A stretch of 64,000 bases of DNA from an uncultured virus (IMG/VR IMGVR_UViG_3300025276_000002) (taxonomy: Duplodnaviria > Heunggongvirae > Uroviricota > Caudoviricetes): IMG/VR virus record IMGVR_UViG_3300025276_000002; one strand, 5' to 3'. The notes beneath the pieces were generated by a model. It was not told where the DNA came from. It saw only the letters and a program-made list of their open reading frames with translations, and did not search any database. Below, one piece after another: positions 20,651-56,515 of this stretch; position 1 is the stretch's first letter; every line of letters begins with the position of its first letter. Both the position numbers and the translations under genes were made by a program.

Positions 20651-21883
20651 CTTTTTTCTTTGTTACTGAGTTTAGTTTATCCCTCAGTTGTAATAGGTGT
20701 GTTTCTTAATTTTATTAACTTGTTTACGTATTTCTTACCTTTTCCGTCTATCTTGTTTTGGAACTCTTCATCAGAAAGTGCTTTCAATCTAAGTATAAGA
20801 TCTCGTTCTGATTGTTCCTTTGTTTTAGGAGGAGGCTTTACGTATGGCTTTTTCTTCTCTGGAGGATTTATAAGATTGTTGACATAAGTTATGAAAGAAG
20901 GTTTCTTATCTTTAAGATAGTTTTCAAGCTCTACCTCATCCATGTTTCTGATCTTATCTTGAAACACTTGGTTAGACGTATTACCCTTCATTTTCTCAGA
21001 TATCTTTTTTCTTCTCTCAGGCTTTCTGGCTGCTTCCCTTAAATTGATCAAAGCTTCTTCTGTGACAGGTTTTGATATCTTTAATCTCCAAGCTTCTTTT
21101 TGCTCTGGTGTCAGTTTCCTCATAGGACTCTTGTCACCTGAGATCCTTCCTACATTTCCATATTGAGAATTGTTCTTACCTCTTCTGTATTTTACACAGA
21201 AAGCTTCATATTCCTCTTCAGTAGAAAAACGATCTCTAAATGATATTCCGTAACTGCCATTATTTTCGCCCCTGATCTTCTCAGCTACCCGCTTTCTGAC
21301 TTCTGGGTGTGCAGCTCTTTCTACCGCTCTAGATTGCGCCATTACAAAGTTGTTAATAAAACCATGCTTCTTAGCATGTTCATCAGGAGTAAGTAACTCT
21401 AAGTTCTCTGGATGATTATTACTGTGGTCATGATCTTTATGATGTATATGCATTCCTGATATTTCATCATCAGAAGCTCCTGTCCATAGTTGATAAATCC
21501 TTCTATAAGATTTACTACCCTTTTGGTACAATTCCATTGCTCTTTCTTTGTCCATAATTTATGCTCCTATTACATCTTTATGTTTCCATAAAGGTCAGAC
21601 TATATCTTCATCTTCACCATTACGTGTTAAGAGTCTCCCGTTTCGATTCCACTTGGAACCTACACACCTTAAAGGTGTTAGTCGTTGAGCCCATCTCTTC
21701 TTGAGAGACTTTGCTGCATTGGTTATCCAATCTTTAAAGGTTTTCACTATACCCACTTCCGTTACAAAATGGTGAACACAGTATATTACTATCTGTGAAC
21801 AGTACTTTAAAGCTCTAAGGATGTTCCTGCATTAGAGAGATTACAATTATCACTATTTCTAATGATACCAGACCGATAACATA
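20651..21883 (-). ncRNA. Group I intron in terL (1233 nt)
   Basis: P1: exon CCAGAU pairs with intron GUCUGG, with U.G at the splice site. Core elements AAUGCAGGAA, AAUGCAGC, CUCAACGACUA and AAGAUAUAGUCU. Terminal G at 20651; P10 AUCG/CGAU. Confidence 0.92.
20677..21555 (-). CDS. Intron-encoded HNH homing endonuclease with NUMOD3-like repeats
   Basis: HIHHKDHDHSNNHPENLELL...H; lies inside the terL intron, 3' of the catalytic core. Confidence 0.88.
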   Translation of the reverse strand: MDKERAMELYQKGSKSYRRIYQLWTGASDDEISGMHIHHKDHDHSNNHPENLELLTPDEHAKKHGFINNFVMAQSRAVERAAHPEVRKRVAEKIRGENNGSYGISFRDRFSTEEEYEAFCVKYRRGKNNSQYGNVGRISGDKSPMRKLTPEQKEAWRLKISKPVTEEALINLREAARKPERRKKISEKMKGNTSNQVFQDKIRNMDEVELENYLKDKKPSFITYVNNLINPPEKKKPYVKPPPKTKEQSERDLILRLKALSDEEFQNKIDGKGKKYVNKLIKLRNTPITTEG

Positions 21884-23248
21884 ATCTGGCGATTTCTTAT
21901 GCACCTGTGGATTGTACTCACACATCTGTGCTTCAAGGTCTCGATGAATACCTACATGGTATATCTTACCTCGCTCGTATAGTAAACCAATCGGTTCTGC
22001 ACGAGCACGTTTACCTTTGGATGCAAATACTTTCTTAACAACTACCATTGGGTCGATGTTGAAAATAGCTGCTGGTATAAAGTCACCACCATTGTTGGTT
22101 TCTATAATTACAGCATCTGCATTGTATTCATAATATAGTCTTACGATGTCTCTATATATCTCAGATATCTTACCTCTTCGAGAGGCATCTTTGAATACAT
22201 AACCTTTGTCATTCTTCCTACCTACAACTGTGATACCTGTCTCATCTGAGTTAATATCTTCAACCACGTTAGGATCGACAGCTACAACTATAGAGTCCAT
22301 AGACTTTACTAGTTTTAGATAGCGTTCATCATATTTATCAGGATCAAGTCCTACATCATCAAGATTAATCCTTTCGATGGATTCATATGAGAAAATGGCA
22401 CCAAGATTTTCTTCTAGGATCATTCCAAGTATTTCTTGGTTATAAAGGCTTGTGCCTTCTCCAAGCTTAACCTCATCTATGAAAGACTGTGGCAATGAAT
22501 AATTATCAAAGGTGGTTCCTGTGGTAAATCTTATGTTGGAATTTTCTTTTTTGGAGTCTTTGTAGAGATCTTTCAAACCCTTTATAGGGCGAGGGGAGGT
22601 GGTTATTACATATCGAGGATACCTGCCAGCACGTAGTGCCTTCTTAGCATTGTCCCATATATCATCATCTCCTGCTGATCTCTTGAAGAACGCCCACTCA
22701 TCTGACCAAACAAGATGAAAGTTTTCCCCACGAACACGGTCACCATTCTCTGCTGAGAAGACTTTAGCTGTGGCACCATTGGGCCAAGTTAAAGTACCAT
22801 CACTTTTATTGTACTTGGGTTTAAATCCTATAGGGGAAAGTCCTAATATACCTGATGAGCCTTGAATCATGTTTTGCTTGGACATGGCAAACGTTGGGCC
22901 TAAGAGGCCTATACGTGCATTTGGTGTCTGTATAGCAAATTCTATAACGGCAGCCGCTCCACAATAACTCTTTCCGAAACCGCGACCTGTACACCATATA
23001 GCCCCTACCCAAGACTTATCTTCGTAAGGAGGTGTCAGTTGATCGTCTCTGAGAAAAATTCTTATATCATTTGAGATGTATCTTAGAACTTCTGCATACC
23101 TGTTTCCAAACATCGACTCAAGATCTTTCAAGAATGCTGACCTTTTACTTTCAGATTGCTCCATGATAAGTTTTTCTCTTATCCATCTTGCCGTCTTTAA
23201 ACTATAAGGGTGTTTAAATGATCCAGAGGAGAGTGCATTATTAGACAT
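21884..23248 (-). CDS. terL: Terminase large subunit, exon 1
   Basis: Walker A GRGFGKS, Walker B VWSDE, TTSP, nuclease motifs VAVDP and IETNNGG; ends KKSPD at the 5' splice site. Confidence 0.93.
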
Positions 23249-25109: not shown

Positions 25110-25131
25110 AGGGAGATGTCCTCTAAGAGTG

Positions 25132-25668
25132 TCATGTGATCAATAAAGTACCTTTATACTCCCATCTAAAACCTCTATACCTGAGTCTTCCTTTAATATT
25201 ATTGCAGGATTGTGATATTCTGCCACTAGATAGACCTAGCTTTTGAGCTTGAAAACTAGATCCGAAGAGCATTGTTTCACCCTCTTTTTTAGCAATGAGG
25301 TTGAAGGTATAGCAATTATCACCCAAACGGTACTTACTTCCTACCATCCTCCCTTTAGTCTCAGGATAGTTCATGTTCTCTCTGTGAGTACCAACCTTTA
25401 TATGACAAGGATTTATGCAAGCTCTGTTATGACACTCGTGCATCATTTCAAACTTAGTCTGATCAAAATCTCCCTTGTGCAGTATATATGAAACTTTATG
25501 AGCTCCTAAACTTCTACCACCAATTTTAAACACACCATATCCACAAGAATCTTTTTTACCAGTAAAATTCCAGCACCCGTTCTTGTCATATTCAACCTTA
25601 CTCAAAAGCCTTTCAACAGGACAACTTCTGACCTTCCTCGTTAAAAGCCAATTTAAATCAAAACTCAT
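25132..25668 (-). CDS. HNH endonuclease (His-Cys type)
   Basis: CWNFTG...GYG...AHKVSY...HECHNRACINPCH...GTHREN. Confidence 0.88.
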   Translation of the reverse strand: MSFDLNWLLTRKVRSCPVERLLSKVEYDKNGCWNFTGKKDSCGYGVFKIGGRSLGAHKVSYILHKGDFDQTKFEMMHECHNRACINPCHIKVGTHRENMNYPETKGRMVGSKYRLGDNCYTFNLIAKKEGETMLFGSSFQAQKLGLSSGRISQSCNNIKGRLRYRGFRWEYKGTLLIT

Positions 25669-25671
25669 ATT

Positions 25672-25756
25672 AACCTCACAGTGTCCAGCTCTAGATGATA
25701 AAGTGACAAGACATAGAGCTGTGATTGTGTCCTTTCGGGAGCTACCCTAGTCACTT
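25672..25756 (-). promoter_or_regulatory. Structured leader of the HNH gene
   Basis: AAGUGAC/GUCACUU closing stem with an inner GGG-UAGCU-CCC hairpin; loop UCACAGCUCUA is complementary to the segment next to the RBS. Confidence 0.6.
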
Positions 25757-25769
25757 ATTAAGTTAATAA

Positions 25770-26510
25770 TAAAAAATCCAACCACCACTTTCGATCAGAC
25801 TTGCTCTGATACAGCATAAGCTGCTGGGTAGCACTCTCTCAGTTGGTACGTTGCTACGAAATATCCCTAATTACACATTACCGCACATGGGCTCGACCTT
25901 GTTACAGGTTTGCTGAGGTACTTTTACGCATGGGCTGCCTCATTATGGTAATTATTTAACAATCGCAAATCTCAGGTGAATAAATCACTCGTGAGAAGCC
26001 GTAAGTCGTATCTGGTACTAAGTACCTTTTTTGTTAAATAGTTGCAGTCTTTCCTGCTGTCATCGGTTTACTATGCATTACTGTAAAGTCCTCCCTCTGT
26101 AAAGGGCTTGGCCTACAATGGCTCCTCTGGCGCACCCAACTCGAAACGCTCGCTATAAATAAACTATTAAAACTTACTTATAGCAAATGTCTTTAAGGGC
26201 CTTTAAAAAAGCAACACCAACCCTTGTTATTATTATTAGAGGTTGGTGTTGAAAGATTCGGTAACTCGGCATAAAGCAACAAGCACCTAAAAGTGAATCT
26301 CCATATTAACTTGAAGTATCACCTACTCACCAATGAAACATCTGTGTGTTCTTGTTATGAGCTATCCATGAAATAGCATCAGATCGTCCATTGGGAAGTA
26401 TTAATATATAACCTAAAGAGTCTACGTGAAATGCGAATAGTCTCTCATATTCGATTCAATTAATTGATTAAATACTTAGGTTTGATAGTTTAAATAGTAA
26501 TCATCCTATC
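25770..26510 (-). ncRNA. Array of abutting structured RNA modules of unknown family
   Basis: No ORF >=60 aa. Successive inverted repeats at 25778-25846, 25877-25952, 25953-26040, 26152-26184, 26212-26251, 26254-26300, 26324-26400 and 26410-26482. Confidence 0.65.
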
Positions 26511-26530
26511 ATATAGGTGCGGTTTAAGGA
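26508..26530 (-). promoter_or_regulatory. Putative phage RNAP promoter (late, leftward)
   Basis: TCCTTAAACCGCACCTATATGAT is 22/23 identical to 33445-33467 in the opposite orientation; T7-promoter-like length with TATA-like 3' end. Confidence 0.75.
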
Positions 26531-26557
26531 ATATGTATATAAAACAAAAGTTTAGCT

Positions 26558-26586
26558 ATTTTAAAGATCTTGACTATTTTAATCAA
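26558..26586 (-). promoter_or_regulatory. Putative sigma70 promoter (leftward)
   Basis: TTGATT-17 nt-TAAAAT, overlapping the palindrome GATCTTGA-N9-TCAAGATC. Confidence 0.55.
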
Positions 26587-26651
26587 GATCCCAGTTGAAA
26601 ATTGGTATGTAAGCTGCAAGGTTTTAGATTAGATGACCCTATTATTTTTAC

Positions 26652-27128
26652 TTAAGTGTCAGCACCCTTCTCCCAGATATCATACCAATAATCGCCACCT
26701 TGTGGTGTTCCGAACCACCAAAATGCGTCTATAAGTCCTTCCTGCCAATTAAACGGGGGAGAGTTTGATGCAGGAGTATACCCCCTGTAAGCCCTTGTAA
26801 GCTCTTCTAATGCAGCCACCTTACCAATCACACTACTTACATCTTTAAACAGTTTTGACTCGGTTATATTGAGCTTATTACTGTGTTTACTCATATCCTC
26901 TTTCCTCCAAGAGTCTTTCTTTATTTCATGCCAGCTTTCTACATACTCTGGCGGATTTAAGCCTAAACAGTGAGTGTCTAGCTTTTCTGTCTTACCACAC
27001 TTTTTACAAACCCGTATTCTGTCTTTTAATGTTAAGCCCATTTCCTCATGTTTGTAATCTAGGTATTCTCTTTCTTGCACAATGTCCCAACTGTGAAAGT
27101 GCAGTCCCTCTCTGAATGATAAGCTCAT
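26652..27128 (-). CDS. Hypothetical protein (CxxC N-terminal part, Trp-rich C-terminal part)
   Basis: 158-aa ORF overlapping the stop of the upstream gene (ATGA). Confidence 0.65.
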   Translation of the reverse strand: MSLSFREGLHFHSWDIVQEREYLDYKHEEMGLTLKDRIRVCKKCGKTEKLDTHCLGLNPPEYVESWHEIKKDSWRKEDMSKHSNKLNITESKLFKDVSSVIGKVAALEELTRAYRGYTPASNSPPFNWQEGLIDAFWWFGTPQGGDYWYDIWEKGADT

Positions 27129-27703
27129 ATTTTACCTACAAAATGTAATTTTTGTATAAGGTGCAAATCTTTTTCCCAAACATCTATGCAATTTCCGTGA
27201 CCTTCACCATACTCTACAGTGTATTTAAAATTAATACCTAGATTGGTTTCGTAAGAACTTCTCTTAACGATAACGCCTGTTTTAAAAGCATTAAACACTT
27301 GAACTCTTACTTTCTGATTGAGACTATATTTAAAAGTGTTTTCTTTACCGTAATCGTAGAGATTAGCTTCTTCTGGGAAATGTCTAATACAACTACTATC
27401 AAGTCTTTTAGTAGGAAGAATATACTCTGGGTTGAAAGGTTGTCCACTAGAAGTAGCAATCTTAAAAGCATTAGAACGATTATAGAAATGACCTGACTCG
27501 TCAATAAAACCCTGACCATTATCACCAAGCTCTTTCTTAGCCTTGAGGGTACATCCGAACCCTTCACGAAGGAAATGATAAACTTCTTGCATATTGCGTC
27601 CCATGTGACAACAATCAACTAAAGTCACATCCTGTAAATAATTACCTTCTTTATCAAAAACCTCAAAAACATTTGCTGCCGCAGATATCATATTTTTAAA
27701 CAT
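27125..27703 (-). CDS. Hypothetical phage protein
   Basis: 192 aa with AAGGAG RBS; QGFID..G.FYNR..AF.IA motif. Confidence 0.7.
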   Translation of the reverse strand: MFKNMISAAANVFEVFDKEGNYLQDVTLVDCCHMGRNMQEVYHFLREGFGCTLKAKKELGDNGQGFIDESGHFYNRSNAFKIATSSGQPFNPEYILPTKRLDSSCIRHFPEEANLYDYGKENTFKYSLNQKVRVQVFNAFKTGVIVKRSSYETNLGINFKYTVEYGEGHGNCIDVWEKDLHLIQKLHFVGKI

Positions 27704-27742
27704 AACACTCTCTCCTTACAATTTGGTATCTCAGAAACGAGA

Positions 27743-27789: not shown

Positions 27790-28437
27790 CTAGTTTTCTT
27801 CCTTATCTTTACATCTAAGTTTCCAAGCAGGTGTTATGTTATATTTGTTCTTTACAAAATACGGATACCTGTATAAGTATTTCTCACTATCTACAGATTT
27901 AGAAACGTTCCACATACAAGGTATGAAATCATAATCAAGATCTTCTAATTTTTTAAATTCAAAAGAAAAAGGATTTTCTTCAAAACACCTTGCCTTGTCT
28001 AAAAACACCTTGTTATTTAACTTAGGCAGTATTTTTAGAATCAAGTAGTTCTCCAAATTATCCATCTCATCCTTATTCCTGCACTGGCAGATAAGTATTT
28101 CATCGAAATCTTTGTCAAGGTGCTTTTTAAGCCTTGCTGACACATTTATAGATTGGCCTATATAGACCTCCTTACCATTTTTCATAAGTTTGTAAACGTG
28201 ATAAAGTTTAGGACTTACCTTTTTAAAAATAGATTCCATAAGACTTAATCTATTAGTTTTATAATTCTCTAAGAGGTGGATTACAAGTAATTCATGATAG
28301 ATGTATTTCAAATCTATATCAGAATCTTCAAGGTAGTCCGCTAACACATCTAAACAATCCTCTGACTTCGCCTTTTTAGTATCCTTCTCTTCTAGGTAAT
28401 AAAGACAGTGCTCTATTATTTCATCTTCTATTCTCAT
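27790..28437 (-). CDS. GIY-YIG nuclease-family protein
   Basis: HVYKL...VYIGQSINVSARLKKH...LENYLI...PKLN. Confidence 0.75.
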   Translation of the reverse strand: MRIEDEIIEHCLYYLEEKDTKKAKSEDCLDVLADYLEDSDIDLKYIYHELLVIHLLENYKTNRLSLMESIFKKVSPKLYHVYKLMKNGKEVYIGQSINVSARLKKHLDKDFDEILICQCRNKDEMDNLENYLILKILPKLNNKVFLDKARCFEENPFSFEFKKLEDLDYDFIPCMWNVSKSVDSEKYLYRYPYFVKNKYNITPAWKLRCKDKEEN

Positions 28438-28444
28438 ATATTCC

Positions 28445-29926
28445 TCACTTAATCTTACAATTTAACTTACTACCCATTACAAACTCATAAGCATCTGTCA
28501 TTACCTGCTCTGCTTTATCAGAACAAGATGATTTAATGATCAATGAATCGTGTACAGGAAACAATACCTCATCCATTTTCAAGAATTGAGAAATACAATA
28601 CTCCACCATCTTAGAATCTAGATTCTGAAACCTGATACCTACACCAGAACAAAAGTATTCGGAAATATCCTTGTGGTACTCCATAGCTTTCTTAACAGTC
28701 TCTTTAACAGGTGCATTTACAATCCCTACAAACTTACGACTAGAGCCTAACTTCTTAGAGAAATCTTTAGCTACATTGTAGCGAATACCTGAGATTGTAC
28801 TTTCCACACCTGTAGCATTCATCAATACAAGCAAGACGGTCTTCTTAAAGTTACGTACAGGATCATATGCGCCCCTATTAACCCCGTTTGTCTTGCACCA
28901 TCTAGACAAGGCTTTCTCATCTATTTCAATATCTAAATCGAAATCATAAGGATCTTTCTCAAACTGAATACCTTTCTCTTCATATGCCATAGCTACATGT
29001 AAGTACTTGTAGTCTTTCTCTACTGTAGGCTCTCCATCTATCGTAACCGTCTTTCTGATCGACTCAGGAGACTTCTGAATAGAGGATTTTGTTTCATAGA
29101 ATCTACCTCCACTTGAGAAATCACCTGAGAATACTCTTCGAAAGAACGTCTCAGGTACATCAAAGCCATTAGCCTTTACAGTGACTTCTTTAAGCTTCTC
29201 ATTGTACACGTCCATCATCTTCTCTAGCTTACCAGCCATCATCTTCTCCTCTTTGCTAAGTATAATATCATAATTATGATCCTTATGTATAACTACTGAA
29301 TCTCCCTCCACTGATCTAAACTCTTCTTCAATCTTTACAGGGTTATCGCAATTACAATAATCTATGAAGTTGGGATTAAGAATGAGTAAGCTAGTTGCAG
29401 ATGCCTCACCTGACAAACTAAACCCTGTAAAGCTTACAGCATCTTCTTTGGATTTAAGAAACTCTATAAACTCCATAAAGTATGACCTGCTAAGTCCGCG
29501 ACTTACTGACTTCCAGTATTTAGTACAAGATCTATACCTAAGTGAATATTTGTTGTGATACTTAAGTCTGCTTATATTTTTAAAGAACATAAGCAATGTA
29601 TTCTTCAACTTCCTATCTGATACAAGCTTTCTAGTGAGTAACAAATAATCCTTAAAACTATCACAGATTTCAGCATAAGCATGATGACACCGTAAAGGAA
29701 GACCTTCTCTGCTGAATATAACTTCCATACTTAAACTGTTATAATCATATAGCTTCCTAACTTCATAGTTAGAATACCAGAAGGAAGACTTTTCATCTTG
29801 ATCTTTGAATACAAACTGAAGATCAGAGTCTATTTCTACTATATCAAATATATCAGTTATGCTTACATCTTTGTGAGTATTTAGGATAAAAGGTTTCTTA
29901 ATATACTCCCTTAATTTGTCACTCAT
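28445..29926 (-). CDS. Superfamily-A polymerase-like protein (TV-Pol-like), distinct from the RNAP and PolA
   Basis: GGRFY, motif A VEKDY, DPY, motif B RNFKK...LMN, FQNLDS and motif C VHDSL. Confidence 0.7.
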   Translation of the reverse strand: MSDKLREYIKKPFILNTHKDVSITDIFDIVEIDSDLQFVFKDQDEKSSFWYSNYEVRKLYDYNSLSMEVIFSREGLPLRCHHAYAEICDSFKDYLLLTRKLVSDRKLKNTLLMFFKNISRLKYHNKYSLRYRSCTKYWKSVSRGLSRSYFMEFIEFLKSKEDAVSFTGFSLSGEASATSLLILNPNFIDYCNCDNPVKIEEEFRSVEGDSVVIHKDHNYDIILSKEEKMMAGKLEKMMDVYNEKLKEVTVKANGFDVPETFFRRVFSGDFSSGGRFYETKSSIQKSPESIRKTVTIDGEPTVEKDYKYLHVAMAYEEKGIQFEKDPYDFDLDIEIDEKALSRWCKTNGVNRGAYDPVRNFKKTVLLVLMNATGVESTISGIRYNVAKDFSKKLGSSRKFVGIVNAPVKETVKKAMEYHKDISEYFCSGVGIRFQNLDSKMVEYCISQFLKMDEVLFPVHDSLIIKSSCSDKAEQVMTDAYEFVMGSKLNCKIK

Positions 29927-30098
29927 TGTTACCTCCTTTTTTAAGAGTTGATTTAATAAATTATCTAATAAGAATACTGCCGTATTGATGGGTTAAGGAA
30001 AGAGAAGTCCGTTTTTTCCTTAGAATACAATAACTTGCAACTCTAAAAATTGACTTTCTAAAACTACCCTATAATTAGCTCGATTTTGTGATCATTTC

Positions 30099-30545
30099 CT
30101 ACCCAAATTTAGCCATATATTGTTCCAATTCTTCCTCTTCTAAGTATTCATCAACTTGATAAGAATCCTTGATTGTAACACCATTATGATCCATCATTTC
30201 TTCTGTGTCAACTTCTTCTGAATTGAGACAGCTTTCTTGAGTGGCATTTAAAGCGTCTGTGCTAGACTGTAAAGCGTTTAATATGTTGTAGTACAGTCTT
30301 AGCTTATTATCTGAATGAACAGCCTTACGTAAGCGCTCCTTGTCCATATCAGTGAAGTAGTCAGAGCCTGTCTCGATTAAGGTTTGAAATAAGTAGTTAC
30401 GATCATATTCATCCATTTTCTCTAACTCATCCTGAGATTCAAAGTGAGCTGTAGGGAACATGAATGATGCTGAGAAAATATCCTCTACTTCCCAGCCAGT
30501 TGTGTTAGTTACGTTGTTATTGTTATTATTGATTGCATTTGTCAT
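30099..30545 (-). CDS. Acidic hypothetical protein
   Basis: 148-aa ORF downstream of the RNAP gene with AAGGA RBS. Confidence 0.65.
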   Translation of the reverse strand: MTNAINNNNNNVTNTTGWEVEDIFSASFMFPTAHFESQDELEKMDEYDRNYLFQTLIETGSDYFTDMDKERLRKAVHSDNKLRLYYNILNALQSSTDALNATQESCLNSEEVDTEEMMDHNGVTIKDSYQVDEYLEEEELEQYMAKFG

Positions 30546-30608: not shown

Positions 30609-33251
30609 TTATTTAAAGCAGTGTACACTACTTAACATTTCATTTAAATCATACTCTCCATACACTATACCAAACTGCTTAGGTGATAGCAACAGGTTTC
30701 TTTGATCTTCATCAAGCTGTGATTGGAACTCTTCATAAAGCTTCTGAAGGATATCTTCCTCAAATATCTTGATAAACTCCTCTCGAATAATACGGTTAAA
30801 TCTTCGAGTGTAACAACAGTGAGCAGCAAGAGAGTCATGCACCATTAATAAGTGATCTATCTTCTCAGATTCGCATCTCAAAGCAACAGCTTGGACCAGA
30901 CAACTGTCAAGACTATGCACTATATCTGGAGCTACAGATGACTTCATTTTACCTACATCAAGAACCTTTTGCAACACACCGTTTTTATCCTCAGCCATTT
31001 TAGGTAGCTTGACAGTGAAGCGTCTTGCATCACCCATGAAGTCAGCATGTACTAAAATGTTCTCCATCTTGTACTTAGCCATTGTAGCCTTAAAGCCCAT
31101 AGGTGTAGTCCACTTCACAGGTTTACCACAATTACCCAATACATCAGCAACATGTACAAACCATTCCATCACCTGACCAGCTCCAGTAATTACCTGATTG
31201 ATTGAATCAAAGATCATATTACCCATGTAACTAGCAGCTTGACCTGTCCCTTCACATCTGAAGTTATCCTCCCACTGCTTCTCAACAATGAACTCAGAAC
31301 AGTGTTGGATATTACCATATCGAGTACCTGAATAGAATTTAACCATAACTGGCTTCTTAACAAGGTTGCGAATAATAAAGCTTAATCTTACCTGCTCTAA
31401 ACGGTCAAAGTCTAGATAAGTATTTAAGTATAATTCTTCCAGTGTGTCAAACTCTTTTGAACGGCTAATAATCATCTCTTGGGTTCTTGATGAAAGTATA
31501 TCATCTTCTTGCCCATTTAAGACGTTCTGTAGGCGCTCTAAGACGTTAACTCGACCTAACCAATCCTGAGCCATAGGGTCTTCTTTAAAAACGCTTAGAA
31601 GGTTGTCTAGAACCTTTCCTGCCACAGCCATATAGAGATCTTGAGCATCTGGTAATGCACATAAGTTTGTATGTCTAGCTCCGACAATATCTCTAGTCAT
31701 TGCAGAAAGGATCTGAGCACCTGAACAACTCGCATCATTAGGATCAGGCAAGTGAGATACAAACTTGTAATCACCATTTTTTGCAAAGTATTCTTTCCAT
31801 GCAGCCCACTCAAAAGCAGCAGCTAAGAATTGTAAAGGCTTATCAGCAGACATCCACTTACACTTTTCAAGAGGATTAACAGAGCATTCAATAATCCAAT
31901 CATTGTTCTCATTGATCCATTTTATTGAATCTTGTTCAGTCAGCTTATCTGTCTTGATACCATTGCCTGAGTCGTTACCCCAGTGATTACAAAGGGTCTT
32001 GATAATACCATACTCACCACCCTTGCCATCACCATCATGATCAAGTGGTAAACCTACAGAGAACTCCAAAACAGCCTTCTGAAAATCAGCACCTTGAAGA
32101 TTAATACCTGACATAGCAGAAGGATATACACGACTACGACCATCTGTGCTTAAAGGCCAATATAGCTCATCTTCTTCCTTAACCATCTCAGTAATCTGTA
32201 TGGTAGCTTCTAAGGCACGATCTAAAGACTTCTTACCTGCAACCTTCTTTACATATGCTTCTTTCCTGTCAACCCATTTGAAGAACTCTTTACGCTTTTC
32301 ATTAGAGGCTTCATCTTGGAAAGCAAGAACCATTGCCTTCTTCTTCTTGCCTGTCTTCTTATCAACCTTTTCACCTTCTACCTTCTCCCAGATATGTTCA
32401 TCAAGTTCCTTATCAATTGGACAAGGTTCATTGAAAGACTTGGGTAGGTTATTAAGAAATAACTTACCCATCTCATCAGGACGAGAAGCTTGTAGCGTCT
32501 TGTAGAGTCCAAAGATCCTTTGATTGATCCTGTGAGGAGTCTTTTGCATATGGTTAATAGATGCAAACAAACGATCATCCTCTGGAAGCTCATGCTTATG
32601 CTTGCCCTTAACAAAAGGATTAGTTGCTTTACCAACTTCTGATAAATATCCACCACCTATCATGTCTTTCCAATCATCAGGTTCACAAACCATTGGCATC
32701 TTCTTAGCTGAAACAGTTGCAAATAGTTCTTCATTGTCATTTACGAGAGTATTCCAATTATCAGTTGCAGAGACTTTCCACTCTGTCACGGACTTACTAA
32801 TACGCTCTAGTTCTGTACGGAACAACTTAAGAGGCTTTAGACCTTCTAATGTTAAATCTAATAACATAATACCTGCTGACACAGAATCAACTACAATCTT
32901 TTTATCCTTAGAGAAAGTATCTTCTGATCTCCCTGCTTTAGAAAGAAGACTGTTACCGATACTAGTTGCAATACGTGTCACAGGTAATGAAGCTTCCATT
33001 GATAAACTAGACACAAGAGCTTTAATACCTATGAATGCAACTTCTTTATGTTCCAACTCCTTAGTAAGTTTAAAGAATGATGCTCTCTTACGTTGAACAG
33101 TGTCATGCTTGTTTTTGATAGCTGCCTCAACAAGATTACACATGTCAACAAGAATTGTAGCATCTCGGTTATTATCCAAGTTCTCTAGAAAACCTTCGAT
33201 AGTAGTTTCATTGAAGTACATCTTTTCTAGTTCTAACTGCTTTTCTCTCAT
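30609..33251 (-). CDS. T7-like single-subunit RNA polymerase
   Basis: PMVCEP.DW..GGY, DGRSRVY, QGAD, motif A DASCSGAQ, motif B RNLVKKPVMVKFYS, PDIVHSLDS and motif C VHDS. Confidence 0.95.
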   Translation of the reverse strand: MREKQLELEKMYFNETTIEGFLENLDNNRDATILVDMCNLVEAAIKNKHDTVQRKRASFFKLTKELEHKEVAFIGIKALVSSLSMEASLPVTRIATSIGNSLLSKAGRSEDTFSKDKKIVVDSVSAGIMLLDLTLEGLKPLKLFRTELERISKSVTEWKVSATDNWNTLVNDNEELFATVSAKKMPMVCEPDDWKDMIGGGYLSEVGKATNPFVKGKHKHELPEDDRLFASINHMQKTPHRINQRIFGLYKTLQASRPDEMGKLFLNNLPKSFNEPCPIDKELDEHIWEKVEGEKVDKKTGKKKKAMVLAFQDEASNEKRKEFFKWVDRKEAYVKKVAGKKSLDRALEATIQITEMVKEEDELYWPLSTDGRSRVYPSAMSGINLQGADFQKAVLEFSVGLPLDHDGDGKGGEYGIIKTLCNHWGNDSGNGIKTDKLTEQDSIKWINENNDWIIECSVNPLEKCKWMSADKPLQFLAAAFEWAAWKEYFAKNGDYKFVSHLPDPNDASCSGAQILSAMTRDIVGARHTNLCALPDAQDLYMAVAGKVLDNLLSVFKEDPMAQDWLGRVNVLERLQNVLNGQEDDILSSRTQEMIISRSKEFDTLEELYLNTYLDFDRLEQVRLSFIIRNLVKKPVMVKFYSGTRYGNIQHCSEFIVEKQWEDNFRCEGTGQAASYMGNMIFDSINQVITGAGQVMEWFVHVADVLGNCGKPVKWTTPMGFKATMAKYKMENILVHADFMGDARRFTVKLPKMAEDKNGVLQKVLDVGKMKSSVAPDIVHSLDSCLVQAVALRCESEKIDHLLMVHDSLAAHCCYTRRFNRIIREEFIKIFEEDILQKLYEEFQSQLDEDQRNLLLSPKQFGIVYGEYDLNEMLSSVHCFK

Positions 33252-33285
33252 CTCAATTAAATCCTCCTACGTGGTTATGCGTTCA

Positions 33286-33313
33286 AGTATATACGTTTTC
33301 AGATTGCTGTCAA
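33286..33313 (-). promoter_or_regulatory. sigma70 promoter for the RNAP gene
   Basis: TTGACA-16 nt-TATACT, then GGAGGA RBS and ATG at 33251. Confidence 0.75.
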
Positions 33314-33420
33314 CAGCTTTATGTAAATAAGTTCTAAATACTTTCAAAAGGTATACATTATAGAGAGAATCTAAGTGTAGTTTGTGATCATTATCAAAAA
33401 GAGGGTAAAACGGGTGTTTG

Positions 33421-33433
33421 TAAGTTATTGATA
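33421..33433 (-). promoter_or_regulatory. IHF-consensus site
   Basis: TATCAATAACTTA matches WATCAANNNNTTR, in the divergent promoter region. Confidence 0.45.
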
Positions 33434-33444
33434 TTAAATAACAA

Positions 33445-33467
33445 TCCTTAAACCGCACCTATGTGAT
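33445..33467 (+). promoter_or_regulatory. Putative phage RNAP promoter (replication operon, rightward)
   Basis: TCCTTAAACCGCACCTATGTGAT; second copy at 26530-26508. Confidence 0.75.
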
Positions 33468-33520
33468 TATACCAGCAGTGGGAAAAGTACCCCACCTTTA
33501 CATTTTAATAGGAGGATTTT

Positions 33521-33814
33521 ATGACTGATTGCAAAGAGCAAGGTGCTAAACTAGAGAAACAACTTAAGCGACAAATGCTAAGTACACTCATAGGCGTAAC
33601 TGAGGGGAAAATTAAGAAAGAAAGTATTAAACTGTCTGAGATGGAGGAGGATTTAGTCTTCTACAAAGGACAGCTAGAGAAGATCACCAAGTCAGACACA
33701 GTGGTGCATGCAAGGATTAAAGTTCTTGAGAGTGATATTAAGATGTGGAAACACCTAGGCGCTAATCTGGAACAAGGTGTAGAGTTCTTGAAAGACTTGA
33801 AGAAAGCTTTGTAA
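33521..33814 (+). CDS. Coiled-coil hypothetical protein
   Basis: 97 aa with AGGAGG RBS; first gene after the putative phage promoter. Confidence 0.7.
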   Translation: MTDCKEQGAKLEKQLKRQMLSTLIGVTEGKIKKESIKLSEMEEDLVFYKGQLEKITKSDTVVHARIKVLESDIKMWKHLGANLEQGVEFLKDLKKAL

Positions 33815-33836
33815 AATATAAACTAAGGAGGCTTGA

Positions 33837-35738
33837 TTGATTTTAAATAATGCACATGAATTTGAAGAGGCGATTTCTCCATCTCAAGCCTCTAAGAAAC
33901 GTACTTCACGTAGAGCTAGTAGAAAGCGTGAGGAGATAGTTGGTAACACAGCTTGCCCTGCTTGCCGTGAGAAAGGAGGAGACAGCACAGGTAATCACAT
34001 GATGATCTTTGAAAGCGGTAAGGGGTATTGCAACCGATGTCCTAAACACTTTACCAAAGAGGAAGTAGAGGCCGCTAAGAAGCCTCAGGCAAGCCGTAGA
34101 GCTCGCAAATCATATGGTGGCAGTTCAGGTTATAATAATTATAACAAAGGTCTGACGCTGGATGACATGCCTCATTTAGGCTTCTCAGGAGATAAGCTCC
34201 GAGGAATCACTGCTGAGACAGATAGACGATTTGGTATCAGAACAGAATTCGACACTTCATCAGGCAGAGCGTTGGCAAGATATTATCCATATTATTTAGA
34301 AGATGAGTTGTATGGATATAAAATGCGTAAATTGCCTAAAGATTGGGGAGCTGCTGTTGGTACTTTAAATGGTACAGACATGTTTGCTTGGAACTTGCTT
34401 AGTGGCAAGTATCAAGTATTGTTAATCGTGGAAGGTGAAGAAGACTGTGCATCCTTGTATCAATTGCACAAGGCTATGAATTTCAGATCTACAAACAGAC
34501 GAATCAAAAGATCTGAAGTAGATGTAGTTTCTTTACCATCTGGTGCAAAAGGTGCTCACAAAGCATTGCTGCATCATATTGAGGAAATCTCTCGATACCA
34601 GAAAGTATTCTGGGCAGGTGATAACTATAAGATTGACACAGAAGGCAAAGCTTGCTTAGAAGCTGCTGTTCAGATAATTGGTGTAGATAAGCTTTACATC
34701 ATGGAGTACCCTGACCGTAAGAAAGATATGTCAGATATTCTTAAGATCGGTGGTGAAGATGCTATAGATATTTATAGTGAAATGTACTTCGGAGCTAAGA
34801 AATATTCTCCATCTGATATTATTGATGGCAAAGACTTAGAGCTTGCTGATATAGAGAAAGATGTTGTGGTGGGATATAGTTTACCTTTTCCAAATCTGCA
34901 AGATCCGATGCAAGGAATGCGACTTTTTGAGCATACGATCTTGACGAGTTCAGCAGGATCTGGCAAGTCAAGCCTTATAACAGCTATAGCTCATCACATG
35001 TCAACAGAACATGGTTGGATGGTTGGAAATATTTTCCTAGAAGAGAAGGTTGTTAAGAGTCAACAGCGATATATTGCATATGATAATAGTGTTGCCCTTA
35101 ATGAATACCGTAAGGATTTTGGGATAATCCCTCTGGAAGATAAGCTAAAGACAAAAGCTGAGATCATTGATAATATGATGTTCTTGGATCACTCAGGTTC
35201 AATTGATCCAGATGTCCTTATGAACAAGATACGTTATTTGGTTGCCAAAGGTTGCAAGCTTATTATACTTGACCACATCTCTCTTGTTGTAACAGGATCA
35301 GATGATGAACGAAAAGATATAGACACTTTGCTTGAGAAGATATACAGATTTGTAGAACATACGCCTGTGCATATCCTATCTGTCGTACATATTAATCGTG
35401 GAGATTCAAAAAAGGATGTATCAAAAGGCGCAGAGATAACACCTAATCTATTACGTGGATCTCAGTCTATAATTCAGTTAGGATTTTCGGTTGGAGCTAT
35501 CGAAGGATGGAACGAAGATGAAGACTATGGCAATACCCGTTTCATCAGGTGGCTGAAGATACGAGAGACAGGTACATTAGGACTAACCAAAGGTTGTCTA
35601 GAATATAACACCAAGACTGGCAGGTTCAGTTACAACCCTAGCTTACATAAGAAAGATGTTGAAGCTGCTATCAAGGAACGGGATAAAGAAGACTTTATTC
35701 CAAAGGTAGGAAACTCTTTTAACAATAAAGCGGTTTAA
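33837..35738 (+). CDS. T7 gp4-like primase-helicase
   Basis: Zn ribbon CPAC...CNRC, TOPRIM EGEED, Walker A AGSGKS, ILDHIS and LRGS; TTG start after AAGGAGG. Confidence 0.92.
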   Translation: MILNNAHEFEEAISPSQASKKRTSRRASRKREEIVGNTACPACREKGGDSTGNHMMIFESGKGYCNRCPKHFTKEEVEAAKKPQASRRARKSYGGSSGYNNYNKGLTLDDMPHLGFSGDKLRGITAETDRRFGIRTEFDTSSGRALARYYPYYLEDELYGYKMRKLPKDWGAAVGTLNGTDMFAWNLLSGKYQVLLIVEGEEDCASLYQLHKAMNFRSTNRRIKRSEVDVVSLPSGAKGAHKALLHHIEEISRYQKVFWAGDNYKIDTEGKACLEAAVQIIGVDKLYIMEYPDRKKDMSDILKIGGEDAIDIYSEMYFGAKKYSPSDIIDGKDLELADIEKDVVVGYSLPFPNLQDPMQGMRLFEHTILTSSAGSGKSSLITAIAHHMSTEHGWMVGNIFLEEKVVKSQQRYIAYDNSVALNEYRKDFGIIPLEDKLKTKAEIIDNMMFLDHSGSIDPDVLMNKIRYLVAKGCKLIILDHISLVVTGSDDERKDIDTLLEKIYRFVEHTPVHILSVVHINRGDSKKDVSKGAEITPNLLRGSQSIIQLGFSVGAIEGWNEDEDYGNTRFIRWLKIRETGTLGLTKGCLEYNTKTGRFSYNPSLHKKDVEAAIKERDKEDFIPKVGNSFNNKAV

Positions 35739-38123: not shown

Positions 38124-40400
38124 ATGGCAGAGGTACAATATAAGTTTCCAGATAACATCAAAGATATCTTAGTATGTGGTGATATTGAGGCTAATGGTCT
38201 TCTGGAAGATAAGAAAGAGTGGAAAGGCGGTCAACTAATTGTCCATAAGAAAGTGGACAGGGTGTGGATGGCATGTTACAAGATTCCAGAAGCAGGTGGT
38301 GCATGTTATGACTTCATTGATGATGAAATGCTGAAGTTACACAAGAGAGCACTACTACGTCACAATAGACAACACGGACGAAGTGATACTAAGCTTCTCC
38401 CACTAAGTGCTTTACCAAGTTTCTGTGAACATGTTGGAATCCAAGTCATGCACTTTGGTATGAAATATGATTTCCCTCTTATGGAGATGCTTTTAGATTG
38501 TGTAGTTCCAAGAGAGAAAAGATGGGATACATTCGTACAAAGCTCAACACAATTCTGTGATAGAGACTTAGTAGAAGGTTCTAAGTCTGGGGCTCACAGT
38601 TTGGAAAGTTTCGCAATTAGATTAGGAAACGGCTTTAAGGTTGAACATGAAGATTGGTTAAACTTTTCAATTGATATGTATAGACGCTGTTGGCGAGATG
38701 TTGAGATCCAATGTGAGGTATACGATTACCTGCAAGAAGAGAGAGAACGTGATCGATTAGAGTGCAATATCGATTGGACAGGGCCACTTCAAACTGAAAT
38801 GGATGCAGCATACTGGATCTCATGGTCAGAAATCCACGGGTTTCCTATTGATGAGAAGTATGCACGTAGTCTTGTTAAGAAGTGGGATGAACACCTAGCC
38901 GATATTGAAGATAAGCTTTTACCAGATATGCCATTCAGATTATCATTTGATGGATGCGGTTCTCCAATAAACTTTGAAACTTATTGTGAAGGTATGTTGA
39001 AGAATACTAACCTATCCAAGATACCTCTTGGCTGGTGCTGGGAAGAGGGTGCAGCTAATAAACCTACACCTGTTTGGAATCCATTCAAGAAAGATGGTGA
39101 TCCTAGTGAGAATGTTAAGAACTACTGGTTAGGCAAAGATGCCACAGATTATGTTCCAGAAGAGCCTGAGCGCTTCTCTAGCCCTGCTGTATTGGATGAT
39201 AATGGTAAAGTGATACAAAAGGCTGTCCGAGCTAGAAAAGCCCGTCCTGCTAAGGAGGCGAAGCCTAGACGACCTAACTGTTATGAAGATGATGCAGGAT
39301 TAACAGAACCACCTCTAGTCAAGATGGATGAGACTGATGTTGCAGGACCATATACCAGAATACAATGGAACCATTATAACCTTGGATCTAACAATCAGGT
39401 TATCGAATATTTGACTAGATATACGGATTGGACACCTACTGAATATACAGAGAAGGGGAGTCCGAAGCTTACGGAAGATAGTTTTGATTCGATAGGTGGA
39501 GATGGTGTAGGTGCTTTAATCAAAGATTACCTTATAACCAAATCTCGTAGAACTAATGTGGAGAACTTCTCTCGACCAGATAAAGGTTGGTTAAATCATA
39601 TTAGAGATGATGGTCGTGTGACCGCTATTAATAATACAATGGGAACCCCCACTACTCGAAGTAGACACAGTGTGATTGTAAATGTCCCATCTGGATCTGC
39701 TAGGTGGGGAAAAGAGATGAGAAAGTGTTGGGTAGCAGCAGAAGGTTGCAGACAACTAGGTATAGATGCAGCAGCGATCGAAGCAAGAGCTATGGCATTC
39801 GAAATAGATTGTGAAGATACTAGACACGAGATAGTTGATGGAGATTTTCACACTTTAGTCTGGAATCAGATACTAGAGTTCTCATCTAGTCGAGGAAATA
39901 CAAAAGGTATTGAATATGCACTTCTCTATGGAGCTTCAGATGAAAAACTAGGGACACTAATTGATGTTGAAGGTTGTCTTAACAGATTTGCCTCTGAAGA
40001 TAAGTTATTAGAAAGGGGGTGGATAAAAGATGTTCATGGAAAGTGGAGACACAAGCAATGGAATCCTAAAAAAGAATCACTTACTTTAAAACAAGCGCAA
40101 TGCACTGTTTGTGGATCTATTATTCGGATGAGAATAATGAGCGGATTACAACCACTAGGTAAAGCTATTGAGAAGTTTGTTAAACTATCTGAAAAAGGTT
40201 ACTTAAAGGCTCTTGATGGAAGAAAGCTTAATTGCAGATCCTCACACAGTGCATTCAACCTCAGGTTGCAATCAACAGGTAGTATTATCTGCAAAACCGC
40301 AATGATACTTACAATGGAAATGCTTCAAAAAGAGGGATTGGTGGTGGTAGGAAGATGCCACGATCCTAAGAAACATGTAGAGCTTTACACCTTTTACCAT
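38124..40400 (+). CDS. polA: Family A DNA polymerase, exon 1
   Basis: ExoI DIEANGL, TPTTRSRH, motif A DAAAIEAR, GDFH, motif B RGNTKGIEYALLYG and LQSTG; ends FYH. Confidence 0.93.
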
Positions 40401-41215
40401 AAATAATATTGTGGTGCTCAGTGGTGACATTGAGTAGAAAACCCTATTAATTGACTGGGAATCTTAGCTAGGCAAACTTCACATGTCGAGATGATATCAG
40501 GAGAGAGTTAGTAGAAGACAATCAGCAGCTATAGGAGAAATTATAATGAAAGAATATAAAGGTTACAGAGTACTAGAAGATGGTACAGTTTTAAATAGAG
40601 ATGGAAGCATTAAGAGGTGGTCGGAAAATCAAAAAGGTTATCTTATATCTGCAATTTCTGTGGAAGGAAAGAGGATAGCGATATCACATCATAGAATGGT
40701 TGCGGCAGCTTTTTATGGAAAATGTCCAAAGAAGCATGAGGTGAACCATAAGGATAACGATAGGAAAAACAACCACCCTTCTAATTTAGAATATGTAACA
40801 AAATCGAAGAACAATCAGCAATCTTGGGACTCAGGAAATAGATGTGCCACAGGTATAAACAATGCGAATTGTAAAGTATCAGAAAAAGATGTGCATATGG
40901 TTTGTAAACAAATAGAGAATGATTTCAAACTAAACGTTTCAGAGTTATCGAGAAAAACAGGAATATCACGAACCACTATTACTAAGATCAAATTCAAAGA
41001 GCAGTGGTCACATATCTCTAAGCATTATAATTTCTAACTATAGTCCACAGACTATCGAAAGGCAGCAGAATAAGCTGAACTGAGTAGAGTAGATTACAAG
41101 TGTAGTCGAAACATAGGGCATCTCTAAGAGATGGTGATATAGTCGCGTCCCATCAGAAATGGTGGCAGATCTTAAAAGATCGGGCATGGAATAACGAACC
41201 ATGTTGAAGGTAACG
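40401..41215 (+). ncRNA. Group I intron in the DNA polymerase gene (815 nt)
   Basis: P1: UACCAU pairs with GUGGUG (U.G at the splice site). Core elements AAUUGACUGGGAA, AAUCAGCAG, CACAGACUA and GAUAUAGUC. Terminal G at 41215; splicing restores motif C H-DE. Confidence 0.92.
40546..41037 (+). CDS. Intron-encoded HNH homing endonuclease
   Basis: HRMVAAAF...VNHKDNDRKNNHPSNLEYVT..N; bracketed by the stem GCTATAG/CTATAGT. Confidence 0.9.
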   Translation: MKEYKGYRVLEDGTVLNRDGSIKRWSENQKGYLISAISVEGKRIAISHHRMVAAAFYGKCPKKHEVNHKDNDRKNNHPSNLEYVTKSKNNQQSWDSGNRCATGINNANCKVSEKDVHMVCKQIENDFKLNVSELSRKTGISRTTITKIKFKEQWSHISKHYNF

Positions 41216-42908: not shown

Positions 42909-44315
42909 ATGGCATTTATATTAAACAATGCACACTTAGATTATGAAGCAAATATTGATAAACGGTTTGACTTTGTAGAAGGTGGTTTACGTCTCTTAGT
43001 AGATGCAGATCCAATTGCATATCTAGCAGCATCAGCCTGTGAATCAGCAACACATCACATCAAGATCAATGATAAATCCACCTATCAGGTGGTAGGTGGA
43101 AAGACTGAATTGTATACAGCCTTAGGCTTCGAGAACAAGGCTCAGTTTGAATCAATGTTAGAAACTAACCCTAGCATTACTTATGAGATTGAAGTCCGTA
43201 CAGACGACCAGAAGAACATGAAGCACACCATTAAGCGTCAAGTTGCTAAACTTGTTAAACGTGTTGGTGCAGGTTCAGTTGAGCTGTATCTGACAGACAG
43301 TAAGAGTAACTTCCGTATTACGGAAGAGATTGCTACAATCTTAAAGTACAAAGGTAATCGTTCTTCAGATAGCAAACCTAAGCTCCTCAGTGAGGCTAGA
43401 AACTACTTACTCGAAGAACTTGATGCAATCATGTGCTATGGTATGGAAGCCGATGACAAGCTTGCTATAGAGCATAGAAAGGCATGGGCTCAAGCCATGA
43501 AAGATGCTGAAGAGTTTTATATAGGTGAAAAGGTTGATACTGAGACTTTAGAGAAGAAAGCTATGGAGTTGACAACAACTGTATTAGCATCTATTGATAA
43601 GGACTTGAAGCAGGTAGCTGGTAAATACATTAATCCAGATGAAGACTTAGGTATTGAAGAAATCTTTCCACTAGGTCACATGTTCTTACAAGAGAAAGGT
43701 AAGTCTAAGAAGTTACGATTCAATGGCCTTAAAGCGTTCTATGCTCAGCTAATCATCGGAGACAACTGCGATAACATTCCAAGTGTATACTTCTGTGGTG
43801 ATACCAAAGCTTATGAAGTTCTGAAAGATTGTAAGAATGAGGAAGAGTTATTCAAAGCTGCATTACGTGAAACATATGAAGGATTCCATCGTGAGATGAT
43901 TAAGTCACTTGATCCTATTATTGATGGCAAAGTTGAGACAGCACTTGAAACAGGCTTGCATGGTAATGACAATAAGAGCAATCGCACTAAACTACGTAAG
44001 AAGTTCAAAGACTATTATATTAGCAATGCTGCATATAAAGATAAGCATTATTACCCTTGGTGGTGCTATGTTGAGAATGAAGATGGTACGGTCTCTAAAG
44101 AACTGAAAGAAGGTATTGACAGTTCAGATATACAAACCATTTCACCTATTGAACACATGATTGAGGTTGCACGATTAGTTTACATGCTTGAAAAAGAGCC
44201 TTGTGAAGATGGTAGTCATTTATGGACACCACCTAATGAGAAGTGGATCAAAGATGTTCAAGATGAGTATATTGAAAAGAATCTTCTTAGAATCGATACA
44301 GAGTGGGTATTATGA
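42909..44315 (+). CDS. 5'-3' exonuclease (T7 gp6-like)
   Basis: VDAD, NFR, YKGNR...KP, EADD, SIDKDL and GDNCDNIP. Confidence 0.9.
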   Translation: MAFILNNAHLDYEANIDKRFDFVEGGLRLLVDADPIAYLAASACESATHHIKINDKSTYQVVGGKTELYTALGFENKAQFESMLETNPSITYEIEVRTDDQKNMKHTIKRQVAKLVKRVGAGSVELYLTDSKSNFRITEEIATILKYKGNRSSDSKPKLLSEARNYLLEELDAIMCYGMEADDKLAIEHRKAWAQAMKDAEEFYIGEKVDTETLEKKAMELTTTVLASIDKDLKQVAGKYINPDEDLGIEEIFPLGHMFLQEKGKSKKLRFNGLKAFYAQLIIGDNCDNIPSVYFCGDTKAYEVLKDCKNEEELFKAALRETYEGFHREMIKSLDPIIDGKVETALETGLHGNDNKSNRTKLRKKFKDYYISNAAYKDKHYYPWWCYVENEDGTVSKELKEGIDSSDIQTISPIEHMIEVARLVYMLEKEPCEDGSHLWTPPNEKWIKDVQDEYIEKNLLRIDTEWVL

Positions 44316-56485: not shown

Positions 56486-56515
56486 AATGCTTCCCAAGAG
56501 CTTCTAGGGCTTTTT
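56479..56515 (+). terminator. Intrinsic terminator
   Basis: GCCTTAGAA...TTCTAGGGC followed by TTTTT. Confidence 0.7.

Follow-up and report, generated by a model that had tools for sequence, protein, structure and literature searches.

TV-Pols were described by Iyer, Abhiman and Aravind (2008, PMC2579912) as polymerases with an RRM-like palm carrying two conserved metal-binding aspartates, a β-hairpin ahead of the palm that provides an absolutely conserved arginine, fingers with an RxxxK motif, and a thumb of two antiparallel helices. No nuclease (proofreading) domain is fused or linked to them, and a combined primase and polymerase activity was predicted. They are associated with a D5-like helicase, or else carry an N-terminal domain and are accompanied by an integrase, resolvase or transposase (PMC2579912). 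CcPol of SCCmec was counted among the TV-Pols by Iyer et al. (Rice 2023, PMC10061031; PMC7581432), and passages of Bebel et al. 2020 (PMC7581432) describe CcPol-MP as a dNTP-using primase that primes de novo. Thus, a minimal A-family polymerase is able to start a chain de novo. Here we analyze a protein of 493 amino acids (aa), P0001, encoded by an open reading frame (ORF) in a 64,000-nucleotide (nt) stretch of DNA from an uncultured Caudoviricetes virus (IMG/VR IMGVR_UViG_3300025276_000002). The whole stretch is referred to as the window, and residue numbers are those of P0001. The protein belongs to phrog_4756, a family of 'unknown function'. Its assignment to the TV-Pols that carry an N-terminal domain is supported by sequence comparison. 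We suggest, at what we judge to be about an even chance, that it is a catalytically competent minimal nucleic-acid polymerase of superfamily A and acts as an initiator primase-polymerase together with a T7-type replisome.

The assignment comes from proteins of integrative elements. Relatives of 430–475 aa are encoded at eight bacterial loci, six of them from Rhodobacterales. The relative lies directly behind a tyrosine integrase in L041, L043, L045 and L047, beside a partial integrase in L042 and with integrases on both sides in L040; resolvases are found nearby in L042, L045 and L047. Using hhalign, the alignment of the phage family (A2) matches that of the eight bacterial proteins (A4) with a probability of 100% (E 2.2e-42, 377 columns), and the match runs from residue 77 to the end, N-terminal domain included. 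GGR-x-Y, a His or Gln five residues past the motif A Asp, R-x-x-x-K and LPVHDSLIV are common to the phage and bacterial proteins. MAP_030 of Ma-LMM01, a phage named in PMC2579912, is adjoined by two transposases and is a weak relative (genome-wide E 2.9e-4; hhalign against A2, P 3.4e-4 over 95 columns at 28% identity; against A4, P 0.013). Because of its full-length homology to the integrase- and resolvase-linked Rhodobacterales proteins, we file the 493-aa protein as a TV-Pol; the reference proteins were matched to those of PMC2579912 by the taxa, context and architecture described there. An initial annotation, made by a model from the sequence of the window alone, had likened the ORF to TV-Pols, and this homology, the weak MAP_030 match and the predicted fold bear it out.

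The motifs on which that likeness was first based, GGRFY (G273–Y277), a motif A aspartate (Asp305), RxxxK (R358 to K362) and HDS (H459-D460-S461), are all present and conserved across 136 relatives. In the alignment of these family members R275, R291, D305, Y327, K362 and D460 are invariant, and G274, H310, R358, N370, D437, S438 and H459 are at least 90% conserved. Judged from the alignment, the motifs are family-wide features and not chance resemblances. The invariant D305 and D460 correspond to the two palm aspartates of TV-Pols. Asn370, eight residues past K362, is the Asn that had been noticed near the usual motif B Tyr. PolA and T7 RNA polymerase (RNAP) have a Tyr at the matching position. 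By motif register, His310 and Leu366 occupy the positions equivalent to E710 and F762. Pfam returned no family at E≤1 for the 493-aa protein, including PF00940, PF00476 and any exonuclease domain. Conservation is uneven along the chain. Mean identity of 135 relatives to the window protein is 16% in the N-terminal domain and 33% in the core; the N-terminal domain, diverging about twice as fast, thus behaves as a specificity domain would.

A full-length AlphaFold2 model was built from 21 sequences (mean predicted local distance difference test, pLDDT, 75.7). Foldseek against the PDB gave 11 matches at E≤1e-3, and these, like all 50 matches listed, are family-A DNA polymerases, with Pol I as the best match (E 6.3e-5); TM-scores are low, approximately 0.2, since the match is confined to half of the protein. 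VIA-align, which was applied without pre-filtering by Foldseek, superposed residues ~250–493 on Aquifex Pol I with Z 10.6 (root-mean-square deviation 4.5, 204 aligned). The apicoplast polymerase (Z 10.6), T7 RNAP (10.3), yeast mitochondrial RNAP (10.1), Klenow (9.3) and N4 RNAPII gp16 (7.1) were also matched, and the top 16 rows, Z 10.6 to 6.4, are all PolA-family DNA polymerases or T7-like RNAPs. In the model the core has the palm/fingers fold of PolA and T7 RNAP, a fold that cannot separate a DNA polymerase from an RNA polymerase. A polymerase fold, for which the initial annotation had proposed a Foldseek check, is thus returned by both methods. Two further TV-Pol features are modelled: strands 249–252 and 255–258 form a β-hairpin followed by R275, in a loop (268–281) of low confidence, and RxxxK stands at the start of helix 356–370. 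An ESM Atlas search with residues 245–493 gave best scores of at most 0.85, among them one cluster with PF00476 in 21% of its members (score 0.79), and provides leads only. Among the sequences of solved structures, the single protein found one chance match (E 0.075) and profile A1 none; profile A2 returned ribosomal L20 alone (E 2.1), which was not useful.

The N-terminal 250 residues were also folded alone (pLDDT 86.6, predicted TM-score 0.75). The resulting model is α/β, with a winged-helix-like module at ~84–196, after which a long helix (225–247) leads into the core. No nuclease is found among the 50 matches listed for this domain. Together with the Pfam result, this agrees with the absence of an exonuclease domain read from the sequence at the outset. 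It also agrees with the lack of a linked nuclease in TV-Pols, as the GIY-YIG gene next door is a facultative insertion (see below).

The family is large. Searched with a profile, 1.84 billion cluster representatives yielded 6722 relatives at E≤1e-3, of which 4235 reach E≤1e-10. All of 21 sampled relatives belong to phrog_4756 and none of the 21 reaches any Pfam cut-off, and five family members tried against NCBIfam gave no match. By tblastn the family occurs in 286 phage records (Vibrio 142, Rheinheimera 115, Aeromonas 14, and others); among 40 matches listed, 36 are annotated as 'hypothetical protein' and 4 are unannotated. The wider, little-studied TV-Pol family occurs in mobile elements and in many marine phages. 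In ICP1, the best-studied cholera phage, the homologue is ORF100 of ICP1_2006_E (58,951–60,618), and a family gene is present in every ICP1 isolate among the matches listed. The phrog_4756 family, very large and with a conserved early gene of ICP1 among its members, thus has no Pfam or NCBIfam model, and our literature searches found no paper on phrog_4756, on ICP1 gp100/ORF100, or on the family as an A-family polymerase or primase. Two genomes each carry two paralogues, G002 (C1:5931-7184 and 82056-83435) and G003 (C1:11620-12924 and 43124-44422), all at E≤1e-82. Three phage records from tblastn likewise show two places, and the window has one copy.

Which replication genes accompany the family was analyzed in five other complete or near-complete carrier genomes, using an RNAP search whose positive control on G001 worked. 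A gp4-like primase/helicase (phrog_239) is encoded by all five as well as by the window, and a PF00476 PolA by four of the five, indicating that the phrog_4756 proteins are not the replicative polymerase. A T7-like RNAP was found in none of the five. The adjacency to an RNAP gene pointed out in the initial annotation therefore holds in the window but is peculiar to its lineage. The position of the family gene recurs. Counting ORFs of 70 aa or more, it directly follows a divergently oriented ORF in 10 of 18 phage loci, and 17 of the 18 have a strand switch within ~2.3 kb upstream of it. Around it lie early genes and genes of nucleotide metabolism or replication, among them helicases, which are found near it in L008, L001 and L016: in L008 a DNA helicase (phrog_1967) lies immediately downstream, and in L016 a primase/helicase lies 2.5 kb upstream in divergent orientation. 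No integrase or D5 helicase is found beside the family gene at the phage loci.

ICP1 also provides context for a role at the origin. Its early bidirectional replication peak is placed 'near the 60 kb position' in a passage of PMC7145576 and its preprint, so that ORF100 lies near the mapped theta origin, and in Data Set S1 of PMC7567579 the ORF100 transcripts are plentiful by 4 min and reach their maximum at 8 min, ahead of late genes. ICP1 has no predicted RNAP, and the pertinent passages of PMC9040626 describe both its replication initiation and its transcriptional control as unknown. By comparison, T7 primes its origin with its own RNAP, according to a preprint passage. An origin-priming role for the window protein is plausible and would fit this context. 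Taken together, the constant company of a gp4-like primase/helicase, the place behind a strand switch, the ICP1 data, the 'DNA Pol I domain' proteins of PLE-like satellites, the precedent of CcPol-MP and the fast divergence of the N-terminal domain are contextual evidence that favors an initiator primase-polymerase. In the mechanism we propose, the fast-evolving N-terminal head with its winged-helix-like module would bind a phage-specific DNA site or a replisome partner. In the 240-residue palm/fingers core, Asp305 and Asp460 would support two-metal catalysis, with Arg275 acting on the template/primer and Arg358 and Lys362 on the incoming triphosphate. As theta replication begins, the core would make or extend a short de novo primer, and this primer would be passed to the T7-type replisome of gp4-like primase-helicase and PolA. 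Such a job would equal that of T7 RNAP in T7 and of the Rep/Pri protein in integrative satellites. A broader proposal, which we put forward tentatively and hold to be less likely than not, is that the many phages without an RNAP of their own start their T7-type replisomes with phrog_4756 proteins, which would be the missing origin-specific initiators. Each would be a self-contained enzyme that recognizes the origin by the variable head and lays the first leading-strand primer with its minimal PolA/T7-RNAP-like core. ORF100, near the mapped theta origin of ICP1, would be the model case, and proteins of this type would act as the Rep/Pri equivalent in integrase-linked bacterial elements. If true, this would explain how replication starts in phages with a T7-type replisome but no RNA polymerase, and would give a first functional handle on TV-Pols carrying the N-terminal domain.

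Several observations weigh against an initiator primase. Primase activity of the branch with the N-terminal domain is something we infer throughout. A DnaG-type primase is already contained in the gp4-like protein of every carrier genome examined, and the window phage has an RNAP that could prime the origin as in T7; a further primase is therefore not obviously needed. In the model a single long helix (225–247) stands where a two-helix thumb is expected, and residues 204–224 fall below pLDDT 50. Winged-helix DNA-binding domains aligned over ~84–196 make up most of the matches to the N-terminal domain (VIA-align Z≤5.8, Foldseek E≥0.1), and a winged-helix reading of this predicted domain is a weak lead. 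A search of 11 upstream or divergent regions showed no iterons, inverted repeats or other consistent repeats. The ICP1 origin is mapped only coarsely, by read coverage in bins of 1 kb and a position stated as 'near 60 kb'. ORF100 lies at 56,043–57,710 in the CRISPR-deleted reference used for RNA-seq; its offset from the origin could thus be 2–4 kb. Finally, the equivalents of E710 and F762, which CcPol keeps against ribonucleotides according to passages on that enzyme, are His310 and Leu366 here, so that the use of NTPs or dNTPs is not readable from the sequence. The unusual residues, a His past motif A and an Asn in motif B, bear on this choice between ribo- and deoxyribonucleotides.

The shared fold raises the question whether the protein is an RNA polymerase. 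Comparison with an alignment of 40 T7-like RNAPs showed that residues 434–484 match RNAP 779–830, the xxLDS...HDS stretch (hhalign P 1.3e-4, 51 columns), and a further match, co-linear with the first, covers motif B (E 0.15 with A2, 0.011 with A1). Against 91 relatives of the phage PolA no true match was obtained (E 0.34, at non-homologous positions). The sole profile signal outside the family is therefore to T7-like RNAPs and not to PolA. On this basis the protein could be a cryptic minimal single-subunit RNAP transcribing a class of phage genes, which would be the sole phage RNAP of ICP1-like phages and, in this phage, a second one, N4 likewise using more than one. The structural matches to T7 RNAP and N4 RNAPII gp16 favor such an enzyme, as do the absence of a T7-like RNAP from the five carriers, the reported lack of a predicted RNAP and of a known transcriptional control in ICP1, the early expression of ORF100, the place of the gene at the operon head and the paired paralogues of G002 and G003. 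However, PF00940 is not matched at E≤1, the core measures only ~240 residues, the thumb is reduced, and the promoter-specificity elements have no counterpart. The phage already has a complete 880-aa RNAP, and a private transcriptase is unlikely in the small integrase-linked bacterial elements that encode full-length homologues. Nor does the window contain a promoter-like motif family: its repeats are scattered and occur in two to four copies, the 18-nt repeat described below in just two, and a short pattern shared with the leader of the polymerase gene is not above chance in the window (5 matches, 2.17 expected). A search of titles and abstracts on ICP1 and rifampicin found nothing addressing phage transcription. 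Altogether, we consider a transcriptase decidedly unlikely.

An accessory DNA polymerase, acting in repair, gap filling, recombination-dependent replication or end processing rather than in initiation, would account for the Foldseek ranking, in which Pol I enzymes come first, and for the co-occurrence of the gene with the phage's own replication and nucleotide-metabolism genes. Translesion and gap-filling enzymes also lack a proofreading domain, as this protein does. Yet the protein keeps neither the steric-gate Glu nor the Phe with which CcPol and Pol I discriminate against ribonucleotides, as described in part of the CcPol literature, and the gene comes first in early operons and is expressed early in ICP1, as far as the cited data set covers it. 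In the bacterial elements it is the sole replication-type gene beside the integrase, as would be expected of an initiator more than of a repair enzyme. An accessory function is, in our estimate, unlikely, and the initiator primase-polymerase is the reading we prefer.

The surroundings of the gene vary. In the related phage locus L003 the stop codon of the polymerase gene runs straight into the sequence 3' of the GIY-YIG ORF and the block 27797-28444 is missing; a contig of run X5 likewise joins 27796 to 28445, skipping 648 nt. Endonuclease genes directly downstream of the polymerase gene occur also in L006 and L007, that of L006 being GIY-YIG-like. Judged by its sequence, the GIY-YIG gene is a free-standing homing endonuclease and a facultative insertion. 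Since 648 bp are cleanly present or absent at a fixed site, its product is not a partner of the polymerase. The pairing of the two genes proposed earlier thus stands as physical adjacency but not as partnership. Identity between the window and L003 is 85.6% for the polymerase, 98.3% for the RNAP, 95.2% for the primase-helicase (part compared) and 93.7% for a 189-aa ORF; the higher divergence of the polymerase could reflect recombination around the homing-endonuclease site. Other differences from L003 are an indel containing an HNH gene (25132-25668) and the absence of 26908-27707, which holds a 192-aa phrog_839 gene (27125-27703) and the N-terminal part of a 158-aa ORF (26652-27128). In a 94-kb contig of run X7, closely similar in the RNAP region, 27801-30101 is replaced by 1435 unlike letters; what stands there in place of the GIY-YIG gene, polymerase gene and leader may be another gene or an allele that has diverged strongly. 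A phrog_506 transposase lies near the family gene upstream in L007 (6201-7295) and downstream in L026 (11516-12610), the only two phage loci in which transposases were found.

Alternatively, the gene could be carried by, or left over from, a selfish TV-Pol element that rides in the genomes of phages and would serve its own spread rather than phage replication; a proposal of this kind exists for Ma-LMM01. Integrative elements are where TV-Pols are typically found, and MAP_030 with its two transposases, the phrog_506 genes, the hot spot of GIY-YIG and HNH insertions with endonuclease genes also in L006 and L007, the X7 replacement and the lowered identity to L003 all point that way. Against this, 16 of the 18 phage loci, and likewise the window, have no integrase, resolvase or transposase within 4.5 kb, and the position after a strand switch is kept across very distant phages. 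The catalytic residues are invariant in 136 sequences, and in ICP1 the gene is present in every isolate among the matches listed and, in the part of the expression data considered here, shows strong early expression. As a rule, homing endonucleases insert next to genes that are conserved and useful, which also counts against selfish cargo. We regard that explanation as quite unlikely and retain the initiator primase-polymerase.

The features of the locus are collected in the table. The minus strand reads, in order, the T7-like RNAP, an acidic 148-aa ORF, the leader, the polymerase ORF and the GIY-YIG ORF. Beyond a strand switch at ~33.3-33.5 kb follow the gp4-like primase/helicase, a Dda-like helicase and PolA. 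The statement that the genome already has a PolA, an RNAP and a primase is confirmed by their profile matches. The cumulative GC-skew minimum of the window falls in the bin 32001-34000, and the intergenic region at the strand switch is a candidate promoter/origin region.

Features of the polymerase locus in the window, with strand and the basis of each assignment
Feature	Position	Strand	Basis
TV-Pol-like polymerase gene, 493 aa (P0001)	28445..29926	minus	ATG start; phrog_4756 member, E 1.3e-89
N-terminal domain, residues 1-250	29177..29926	minus	separate fold model
Catalytic palm/fingers core, residues 251-493	28448..29176	minus	structure matches and invariant residues
Core residues R275, D305, H310, R358/K362, N370, Q434/D437/S438, H459/D460/S461	R275 29102-29104; D305 29012-29014; R358 28853-28855; K362 28841-28843; N370 28817-28819; H459-S461 28544-28552		
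Leader, 172 nt, between acidic 148-aa ORF and polymerase gene	29927..30098	minus	Shine-Dalgarno ahead of ATG
GIY-YIG ORF, 215 aa	27790..28437	minus	PF01541 E 2.3e-5, 25.0 bits (cut-off 22.6); phrog_314 'homing endonuclease', E 2.6e-4
T7-like RNA polymerase, 880 aa	30609..33251	minus	PF00940 E 9.2e-65; phrog_414 E 4e-153
Divergent intergenic region between RNAP arm and primase-helicase arm	33252..33520		strand switch and cumulative GC-skew minimum
gp4-like primase/helicase, 633 aa	33837..35738	plus	phrog_239 E 3.4e-125
PolA	38124..40406		PF00476; phrog_17 E 1.5e-80

The initial annotation had also drawn a speculative link between the polymerase and a non-coding 'RNA array' about 2 kb away on the same strand. 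The distance is close: the non-coding stretch (25669-26651, 983 nt) lies 1.8 kb downstream of the polymerase gene on its strand. It folds better than shuffled sequences (z -3.35, 20 shuffles), a terminator-like hairpin ends near 26205, and no Rfam family was found in 25500-26750 at E≤1. The link itself is without support. Among the related loci compared, blastn found the array sequence only in L003 and L004, the two closest relatives, and L003 is without 25118-26205, which comprises part of the array plus the HNH ORF. The leader shows no unusual fold compared with shuffles (z -0.54) and no repeats; 118 nt of it are kept in L003 at 90.7% identity. In the X5 and X7 contigs, 26032-26205 is replaced by 33 other letters.

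An exact 18-nt repeat occurs in two copies, at 26513-26530 on the minus strand and at 33445-33462 on the plus strand (expected 0.01). Both copies are oriented like the genes that follow them, one being ~60 nt ahead of the primase-helicase operon and the other inside the long non-coding stretch; the repeat is a candidate phage promoter or protein-binding site. Elsewhere in the window, a group I intron (RF00028, 74.6 bits, E 4e-17) lies on the minus strand at 21576-21895, at the 3' end of the terminase large-subunit ORF, and is followed by an HNH endonuclease ORF (terminase and HNH ORFs, 21815-23248 and 20677-21555). The terminase gene appears to be split by this mobile intron. No tRNAs were found in the window.

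Comparing the window protein with known polymerases places it closest to the TV-Pols with an N-terminal domain. Both have a minimal superfamily-A core in a protein of 400-600 residues, an extra N-terminal domain and no nuclease domain. In contrast to TV-Pol elements, the window gene resides in lytic-type phage genomes at the head of early operons, and its N-terminal domain is modelled as α/β with a winged-helix-like module whereas an all-helical domain is predicted in PMC2579912. T7-like RNAPs share the fold, the HDS of motif C and the xxLDS stretch, but they match PF00940, are about twice the size and keep the motif B Tyr where the window protein has Asn370. They also have a small residue five positions past the motif A Asp, where the window protein has a His. 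PolA enzymes share the order of catalytic motifs and are the best structural matches; unlike them, the window protein has no PF00476 match and no exonuclease domains, and keeps neither the steric-gate Glu nor the motif B Phe/Tyr. For PLE-like satellites, passages of LeGault et al. 2022 (PMC9410903) describe an initiator slot, occupied by RepA in PLE, that is filled either by a RepA_N protein or by one with a 'DNA Pol I domain'. These elements use an ICP1-type replisome, and their 'DNA Pol I domain' proteins are likened to the window family by description only.

CcPol-MP is the comparison in which priming activity has been demonstrated. The initial annotation held that such compact enzymes have little experimental characterization, which is true of the branch with the N-terminal domain but not of CcPol-MP, reported in the passages cited above to be a dNTP-using primase. 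According to the pertinent parts of PMC7581432, CcPol needs a small OB-fold partner, MP, is without the TV-Pol N-terminal domain, and keeps the E710/F762 equivalents. No conserved adjacent small partner gene was found for the window family: downstream genes vary by locus, and the 215-aa and 192-aa genes are both missing in L003. A conserved pair with the 192-aa phrog_839 gene was ruled out, as that gene is also 4 kb away in ICP1. Like the window protein, CcPol-MP is a truncated A-family polymerase; in the portions of the CcPol study considered here, it comes from a mobile element and works beside a helicase.

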